Notes under the pieces: generated by a model
Database searches by the model: none
What the model was told of the DNA's origin: nothing
What the model saw: only the letters and a program-made list of their open reading frames with translations
Translations under genes and position numbers: made by a program
Shown: positions 5,418 to 8,161 of the stretch, piece by piece
How the letters are laid out: each line of letters starts with the position of its first letter
Numbering within the stretch: position 1 is the stretch's first letter
From: Gammaproteobacteria bacterium
GTDB taxonomy: Bacteria; Pseudomonadota; Gammaproteobacteria; Arenicellales; Spongiicolonaceae
Length of the DNA stretch: 30,633 nt
Direction of reading: 5' to 3'
NCBI GenBank assembly: GCA_007570945.1
Contig: RKSH01000193.1
Coordinates: 1-30,633, forward strand

Positions 5418-6167
5418 ATGGGCGCCGACCTGAAAACGCCGGCCCGGGAAATTGCATCGCTGCGGCGGGAGATTCGCCGTCATGACCGCGCTTACTACGT
5501 GCTGGATGCGCCAACGCTGGGCGATGCGGAATACGACCGTCTGTTCCGCCGCTTGCAAGAATTGGAGGAGCGGCATCCCGAATTGGTCACCGAGGATTCA
5601 CCAACGCGGCGGGTGGGCGGCGAACCGGCCGGCAAATTTGCCGAGGTGAAGCACGGCGCGCCCATGCTGTCCCTCGGCAATGCGTTCAACGAAGGGGAAA
5701 TCCTCGCCTTTGACAAGCGCGTGCGCGAAAAACTGCAAGCGGCGGAAGTGGCATATGTGGCGGAGCCCAAACTGGACGGCCTGGCGGTGAGTTTGGTGTA
5801 CGAAAACGGCGTGTTGCACCGTGCCGCCACCCGCGGCGACGGCCTCACCGGCGAGGATGTGACCGCCAACATCCGCACCCTGCCGTCGGTGCCGTTGCGC
5901 CTGCACGGCACGGGCCATCCGCCCATGGTGGAGGTGCGCGGCGAGGTGGTGATGACGCACCGGGGATTCGCCGCGCTTAACCAAAAACAAAAAGAGAAAG
6001 GCGCCAAATTGTATGTGAACCCGCGCAACGCCGCCGCCGGCAGTTTGCGCCAACTGGATCCGCGCCTGACCGCCGAGCGGCCGCTGGAAATTTTCTTCTA
6101 CGCCATCGGCGCCAGCCGGGGCAGGTTTTGGCCATCGACACCCAGGTCGGGCGCAGCGGCGTGGTGA
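5418..6167 (+). CDS. ligA: NAD-dependent DNA ligase, N-terminal fragment (domain Ia and adenylation motifs I, III, IIIa); homology ends near 6120
   Basis: [59 protein letters not shown]; then frameshifted junk to a stop at 6165-6167. Confidence 0.9.
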
Positions 6168-8161
6168 CGCCGGTGGCGCGCTTGCGGCCGGTTTTTGTCG
6201 GCGGCGTGACGGTGTCCAACGCGACGCTGCACAATGAGGAGGAAATCAAGCGCAAGGATGTGCGTGTCGGCGACACCGTGGCGGTGCGCCGCGCCGGCGA
6301 CGTGATTCCGCAGGTGGTCGCGGTGGTGAAAGAACAACGCCCGGCGCACGCAAAACCCTACCGTTTTCCCGCCCGCTGCCCGTCCTGCGGCAGCAAGGTG
6401 GTGCGCGACACCGAGGGTGAGGGCGTGGTCAGCCGCTGCAGCGGCGGGCTGGTGTGCCCGGAGCAGACGGTGCGGCGGTTGCAGCATTTTGTCTCGCGCG
6501 CGGCCTTTGACATTGAGGGGCTGGGCGGCGAATTGATTCGGGAATATCTGGAGCACGGCTGGATTTGGTCGCCGGCGTCCATTTTCACGTTGCCGTCGCG
6601 CATGGAACACGTTCTGGAAATTAAAAAACTCACCAACGCCGGCCAGGCCGTCGGCAACCGGGTGAACAATCCCAAGGACTCATTTTCCGCGGATAGATTG
6701 GCGGTGCGGGCGGAAGAGTATTTGCGGGAAAACAAACTTGACCGCGCTTTTGCCGGGCGCGTGGTGGCGGCGGAGATTGCAACCAGCGGCGCCGGTGGCG
6801 GCCGGGTTGTGGAGATCGCATGCGTTGAGATTAACCGCGCTTTGCCCGGCGGAAAAGCGTTGCACCATTATGTTAACCCCGGGTGCAAGGTGGACGCGGA
6901 TGCGGTGGCGGCGCACCGGTTGTCCGACGGTTTTCTGGAACAGTTTCCAAAGTTCGGCGCGGTTGCGGATGAAGTGGCGGATTTTATCGGCGGCGCGCCG
7001 GTGGTTGCATGGAATGCCGGGGCGAAAATGAAAATCCTGCACGGCGAGTTTGCGCGGTGCGGAAAAAAAACGCCGAAGTTTTCCGCGGCCGATGCCGGCG
7101 ACCTGGCGCGGCGGTGCTTTCCCGCGGAGGAAAAACGTCTTGCCGCCCTGGGCGCGCGCTTTGACCTCCGCCCCGGCGGCCGGCGCATGCGCGGCGCGTT
7201 GGTTGATGCGCGGACTCTTGCGCGAATTTACCCGGGCCTGGTGGGCGGCGCGCGCCGGGGTGAGATGACCGCCCCGGCAAGATTGTTTGGCAATCTGGCG
7301 CGGCAAATTGAGGCCCGGCGCTCGGTGCCGCTGGAACGTTTTATTTTTGCCCTCGGCATTCGCCATGTGGGCGAGGGCACCGCGCTGCTGCTTGCGCAGG
7401 CTTACCGTTCACTGAAAAACTTCACCCAAGGATTGCAGGATGCAATGCGGGAATGCGCGGACCGTCGGCAACGGCAATCCTCCGTTTATTACTACGAACT
7501 CATCGGCATTGGCGGAATCAACGCCAAAGCGGCGGAGTCGCTGCTGAAGTTTGCAGCGGGTCCAATGCCATTGTTTGCGGACGAAAGTTCCATCGCGGAA
7601 TTAATCCAACAGCACGACAAAAAACGCGGCGGTGAAATTCAGCATGTGGGAAAACTGCTGGCGGCCCGGTTGGAACAAACCTACGGCACGGTGGAAAATT
7701 TCCTCAGGCGCTTGCGCGAGGCCGCGAAGGAGCCTCCCTTGCGCGAAAAATCCGCCTACAACGCGCTGAGAAACATTGACGAGGTGGGCGATGTGCTGGC
7801 CCATTCTCTGATGGATTTCCTCAGTGATGAGCACGGCCTGGAAATGATGGAAAGCCTGGCAAAGCAGGTGAAAGTCATGCCGACCCGTGTTGCGGCCGTG
7901 TCTGCGGATGCTCCCCTGGCCGGCAAAACGGTGGTTATCACCGGCAAATTTGAGGGTATGGACCGCTCCCAGGCCAAGGCCCGGGCGGCTGAGTTGGGCG
8001 CCACCGTGGTTAATTCCGTCACCTCCAAGACGGATTTGGTGATTACCGGCAAAGACGCCGGAAAGAAAAAACTTGACAAGATAAGCGCCCTGGGAATCAA
8101 CCAAATGGATGAGGTGCAGTGGTTGGAAATTGCCCTCCCGAACAAAGGCCCCGGTTCCTGA
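6128..8161 (+). CDS. ligA: NAD-dependent DNA ligase, C-terminal part (OB fold, Zn finger, HhH, BRCT) with an inserted DnaQ-like domain
   Basis: [35 protein letters not shown] Zn finger, [36 protein letters not shown]. In a different frame from the N-terminal fragment; the TTG start is unconfirmed. Confidence 0.88.

Follow-up and report, generated by a model that had tools for sequence, protein, structure and literature searches.

The ligA gene carried by the window, which is the entire 30,633-nt contig C129 of the MAG under study (G000; 1.80 Mb, 242 contigs, 88% complete), is divided between two reading frames, and this split is in all likelihood a local assembly or scaffold-join error of the MAG rather than biology. 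The sequences compared here suggest that the organism very probably has one normal-acting ligA of 1006 codons, belonging to a LigA type with an inserted DnaQ-like domain. Misassembly was one of the alternatives offered by an earlier sequence-only reading of the window, and it is now strongly supported: all eight other full-length copies of the gene are intact, one of them being identical in both flanks, and conspecific contigs are also free of the lesions that this assembly carries in its tyrS and GMC oxidoreductase genes.

The ligA junction and its intact counterparts

The ligA gene lies on the plus strand with zipA upstream, its frame opens at 5418 (an alternative ATG is found at 5385), and the list of open reading frames places it in two frames, 5418-6123 and 6124-8161. 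The 5' part (5418..6123, plus strand) comprises codons 1-235 and the first base of codon 236 and matches PF22745 and PF01653; it takes in domain Ia and, as far as motif IIIa, the NTase domain, and includes the motif I lysine (KxDG, here KLDG). The PF01653 adenylation profile is matched by this N-terminal piece at positions 3-164 of 253 only. The 3' part (6124..8161, plus strand) runs from the last base of codon 328 to the stop codon, with Pfam matches to an OB fold, a zinc finger, a DnaQ-like insert, HhH and BRCT modules (PF03120, PF03119, PF00929, PF12826 and PF00533). The deposited sequence has no complete NTase domain, motifs IV (DGVVxK) and V (with the lysine of RWAxAxK) being missing, and its OB, C4 zinc finger, HhH and BRCT modules lie in a frame other than that of the NTase. 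The OB, zinc finger, HhH and BRCT modules share one frame with the NTase both in P0122, an intact protein from other contigs, and in G001, the congener MAG that represents the sole other species of the genus and served as the reference for G000.

The two parts are joined between A6123 and G6124 (6123..6124, plus strand) at a blunt junction from which 277 nt are gone, as determined by blastn and manual alignment with the congener gene and by the residue count of P0122. For the G001 gene, blastn pairs nt 1-739 with positions 5385-6123 of the window, and nt 1024-3051 with positions 6131-8161; base-by-base inspection found no microhomology at the ends of the junction. Because the loss amounts to 277 nt (3x92+1), namely the last two nucleotides of codon 236, codons 237-327 and the first two nucleotides of codon 328, the reading frame is shifted. 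It is only as a result of this frameshift that the N-terminal piece ends in an out-of-frame tail of 14 residues (6123..6167, plus strand), which is closed by a stop at 6165-6167 in the open reading frame list and is seen in the alignment of the 249-aa product, P0130. The second ORF extends from a TTG codon at 6128 to 8161 (677 aa); this TTG (6128-6130) encodes Leu330 within intact ligA and is not a demonstrated start. The sequence-only reading had described a split ligA lacking about 95 codons, motifs IV and V included, with a frameshift, a description that proves accurate, the precise figures being 93 affected codons and 277 lost nucleotides.

The protein cluster formed at 90% identity has 11 members. 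Eight are full-length copies of 1005-1017 aa, whose contigs (13-41 kb) come from JGI/IMG and Logan; the rest are the two window products (677 and 249 aa) and a C-terminal fragment of 264 aa, encoded on a contig of 5.7 kb. The split is carried only by the two products of this contig, and the missing segment is present in every full-length member. One of these members, P0122, is represented on three contigs from two sources and agrees at every residue with the two pieces encoded in the window (235/235 and 676/676), with 95 residues between the exactly matching pieces; the lost stretch corresponds to residues 236-328, and holds DIDGVVYKV (motif IV) and APRWAVAHKF (motif V). Mutational work from the Shuman laboratory reportedly found R277, D285, K290 and K314, all located in the lost segment, to be essential. 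The lost stretch aligns with residues ~233-323 of E. coli LigA (2OWO).

At the DNA level, the junction was set against the gene of the congener (91% identity), which is uninterrupted and has 1016 codons, and the match of the flanks to conspecific sequences is one of proteins. Since all other full-length cluster members are intact and P0122 agrees with both pieces, the ligA lesion is private to this record, with no change accumulated around the junction. The ratio dN/dS between G000 and G001 is about 0.22 in each half of the gene (0.22 for the N-terminal and 0.22-0.23 for the C-terminal half), and thus both halves have been under purifying selection. Such a comparison of the two halves had been put forward in the earlier reading; relaxed selection in one of them was considered on this basis and rejected, as there is no asymmetry.

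The missing 277 nt and the 93 residues were sought by tblastn and blastn across the 242-contig assembly, with chance matches only, and motifs IV and V are absent from the whole assembly. Similarly, a search of G000 for a second NAD-dependent ligase found none, the number of PF01653 matches being one.

The insertion of an RNase_T/DnaQ-like domain into the ligase (6797..7232, plus strand; PF00929, residues 224-368 of the 677-aa piece) was expected to stand even if the split were an artefact, and it does: the insert is unaffected by the break and is present in P0122, where the NCBIfam dnaQ models score 114 and 111 bits, each under its own cut-off. Full-length relatives of the long LigA, with 44-51% identity over residues ~3-995, are encoded by Desulfurivibrio, a Desulfobulbaceae MAG, a Thermoanaerobacterales MAG and an Aerococcaceae isolate, and matches in genome contigs place the long form in scattered phyla. 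A scan of metagenomes for ligA loci returned distant relatives only (38-51% identity).

Losses in other genes of the same assembly

In the case of tyrS, a frame-disrupting loss of 190 nt lies at a blunt join between positions 8118 and 8119 of contig C111 of G000 (about 1544-1545 of locus L127). The gene reads ...GFDPTAPDL, is then without 64 codons, including those for HLGH, and continues as LDAEKTEIRF... out of frame. The HLGH sequence is the class I HIGH signature. No other TyrRS was found in G000, the broken tyrS being the sole copy. Among the 15 listed of the 18 members of the TyrRS cluster, all are of 399 or 415 aa and include the 64 residues, with the exception of one 332-aa fragment. 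An intact 399-aa TyrRS identical to both G000 flanks occurs in JGI and Logan contigs; this protein, P0252, is encoded by four contigs, matches each G000 piece at 100% identity (47/47 and 288/288 residues) and contains the 64 residues.

The third lesion is in a GMC oxidoreductase gene on contig C151 of G000 (~6886-6890), where a loss of 316 nt removes most of the GMC_oxred_C domain, such that the gene encodes residues 1-410 only. The corresponding cluster has 19 members, and the 15 that are listed are all of 523 aa, with the conspecific ones 99.5-99.8% identical. All three lesions that were tested in G000 are private to the assembly, near-identical sequences being intact in each case, and two of the three, in ligA and tyrS, disable essential single-copy genes.

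On a larger scale, G000 was compared with 141 contigs of G001, over 979 kb of alignment at 92.8% identity (~54% of G000), and reading frames were picked by Pfam matches, GC3 having been tried for this purpose and found unreliable. Of 18 indels measuring 30-119 nt, 14 preserve the frame, the behaviour expected of real coding indels. Clean losses of at least 120 nt number 54 in G001, mostly of 120-400 nt and with 27 of the 54 in frame, and 12 in G000, where 8 of the 12 are out of frame if three IS-like events of about 1 kb are counted in. These three events, of ~0.9-1.06 kb, were set aside, leaving nine deletion-type losses in G000, of 134, 159, 163, 190, 225, 277, 302, 316 and 733 nt. The losses in G000 thus affect several unrelated genes, essential single-copy ones among them. 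The junctions of the class are mostly blunt in the microhomology test. Coverage dropout from extreme base composition was considered as a source of the losses and set aside, the GC content being 0.651 in the missing segments and 0.649 in the genome. The three segments missing in G000 (G001 L144:13775-14665, L149:5200-6238 and L156:7133-8187) have junction overlaps of 5-7 nt, and look like IS insertions in G001 with target-site duplications, not deletions in G000.

Judging by these alignments, losses seem to have struck the G001 assembly harder still than that of G000, and since half of those in G001 are in frame, some may reflect true indel differences between the species. Two of the losses face the window. 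Opposite 8445-8774, G001 is without 333 nt, and the 3' end of panC is fused to the C-terminal half of a LysE/RhtB-family gene in a 431-aa chimeric ORF (L003), a lesion of the same class on the G001 side. Opposite 21165-21437, an out-of-frame loss of 271 nt in G001 falls within the endonuclease V gene nfi (20864-21568, minus strand; PF04493). Elsewhere, losses in G001 fall opposite C83:11759-12030, C170:10183-10720 and C217:1166-1397 of G000, for instance, and the genes concerned encode ClpB (284 nt), sarcosine oxidase alpha (538 nt), a MoxR-type AAA protein (275 nt), RACo (233 nt), an MttB-family protein (193 nt), a class I aminoacyl-tRNA synthetase (231 nt, in frame), PntB (162 nt) and NAD-GDH (225 nt).

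Alternative explanations and a candidate mechanism

The sequence-only reading had also raised the possibility that ligA is dead or repurposed, with the half encoding the OB, zinc finger, insert, HhH and BRCT modules being made as a non-catalytic DNA-binding protein that starts at TTG 6128, and with another ligase sealing nicks. It is true that a 677-aa ORF is open from this codon, and that G000 encodes a ligase of the Lig E family on contig C193 (L014:1309-2217), away from the ligA locus. The search for a second ligase thus had a divided outcome, negative for NAD-dependent enzymes and positive for ATP-dependent ones, the latter of Lig E type only. The C193 protein resembles Lig E in three respects: a full-length match to the equivalog model NF006592 (363 bits, the cut-off being 200; protein residues 25-302 aligned with 6-282 of 283 model positions), a KLDG motif I, and an N-terminal leader that looks hydrophobic by eye. 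Yet the congener, whose ligA is intact, has the same gene (L026, 90% identity), so that Lig E is not a compensating acquisition, and Lig E is described as an accessory, non-essential and periplasm-targeted enzyme (PMC10799422; bioRxiv 10.64898/2026.03.22.713542). We find no evidence that the C193 ligase is a replicative backup for LigA. Moreover, the supposed start is an internal leucine codon of the intact gene, the two ligA pieces have not diverged from P0122 by a single residue, and tyrS is broken in the same manner with no second copy to stand in for it. A dead or repurposed ligA is accordingly exceedingly improbable.

A second possibility is that the 277-nt deletion is genuine and recent but confined to some copies of the genome, either as a minority variant or as defective copies within a polyploid symbiont cell, with the assembler having followed the deleted form and the intact copies supplying function. 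The blunt, repeat-free junction is not readily explained by assembler collapse and would suit such a deletion, as would the small 1.8-Mb genome in many contigs and the many gene-internal losses between the two species, a pattern known from genome reduction. Against this, the flanks are 100% identical in protein to the intact allele, all eight of the other full-length proteins in the cluster lack the deletion, and the same assembly has private lesions in its sole tyrS and in the GMC oxidoreductase gene; that three independent minority variants should each win the one consensus is less likely than a single technical cause. We therefore regard a real deletion in part of the genome copies as unlikely. 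Its most elaborate version, in which dead ligA and dead tyrS persist in part of the symbiont population through complementation in polyploid cells and the defective haplotype was the one assembled, would be highly improbable.

LigA is essential for bacterial growth (PMC4797296), and one viable cell without LigA catalysis and without the HIGH motif of TyrRS is not credible; the lesions are therefore best explained as assembly errors. Under an assembly error, a stretch of about 277 nt, which the assembler failed to bridge, would have been left out and its two flanks joined directly, the removal of motifs IV and V and the shift of frame being accidental results of the join. As to the mechanical cause, conceivable options are a scaffold gap output with no Ns, a wrongly merged read pair and a faulty local consensus. 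Gaps spanned by read pairs alone and written without Ns, or a similar joining error, would fit the sizes of 120-400 nt, the blunt joins, the weak frame preference and the total lack of Ns in the G000 assembly (smallest contig, 2,530 nt), and losses of 120-400 nt would also be in keeping with the length left unsequenced between the two reads of a paired-end library. Two features run counter to an assembly error, namely the lack of any repeat or microhomology at the ligA junction that might explain a de Bruijn collapse, and the ordinary GC content of the missing segments.

Consequences and comparison with known systems

On the sequences at hand, the split ligA is thus most probably not real as a biological feature, and the main value of the observation concerns data quality. 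This MAG, and its congener to a greater extent, would contain dozens of silent holes of 120-700 nt within genes. Such holes lead to false pseudogenes, false split genes and lower estimates of completeness, and could pass for genome erosion in a sponge symbiont. For work on the structure or function of the ligase with the DnaQ-like insert, the 1006-aa form (P0122) should be used rather than the 677-aa fragment.

Compared with E. coli LigA (2OWO), P0122 aligns over residues 10-486 and 870-997 (E 4e-181) with the same domain order, and it scores 814 bits on the LigA equivalog model NF005932 of NCBIfam, for which the cut-off is 369. Unlike the E. coli enzyme, the true gene has an insertion of ~330 aa, with the DnaQ-like domain, in the HhH region, whereas the deposited window is frameshifted and has no equivalent of residues ~233-323, where motifs IV and V are located.

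MAGs can contain local errors of assembly and scaffolding gaps which, if left uncorrected, are known to introduce incomplete or incorrect proteins into databases (Chen et al. 2020, Genome Res 30:315, PMC7111523). The lesion described here differs from the short-read scaffold gaps of that account in that the ligA join has neither Ns nor a repeat. In other respects the resemblance is close: the losses are internal to genes, are confined to one assembly, affect several unrelated genes including essential ones, have sizes within paired-end inner distances, and have placed wrong proteins in public databases.
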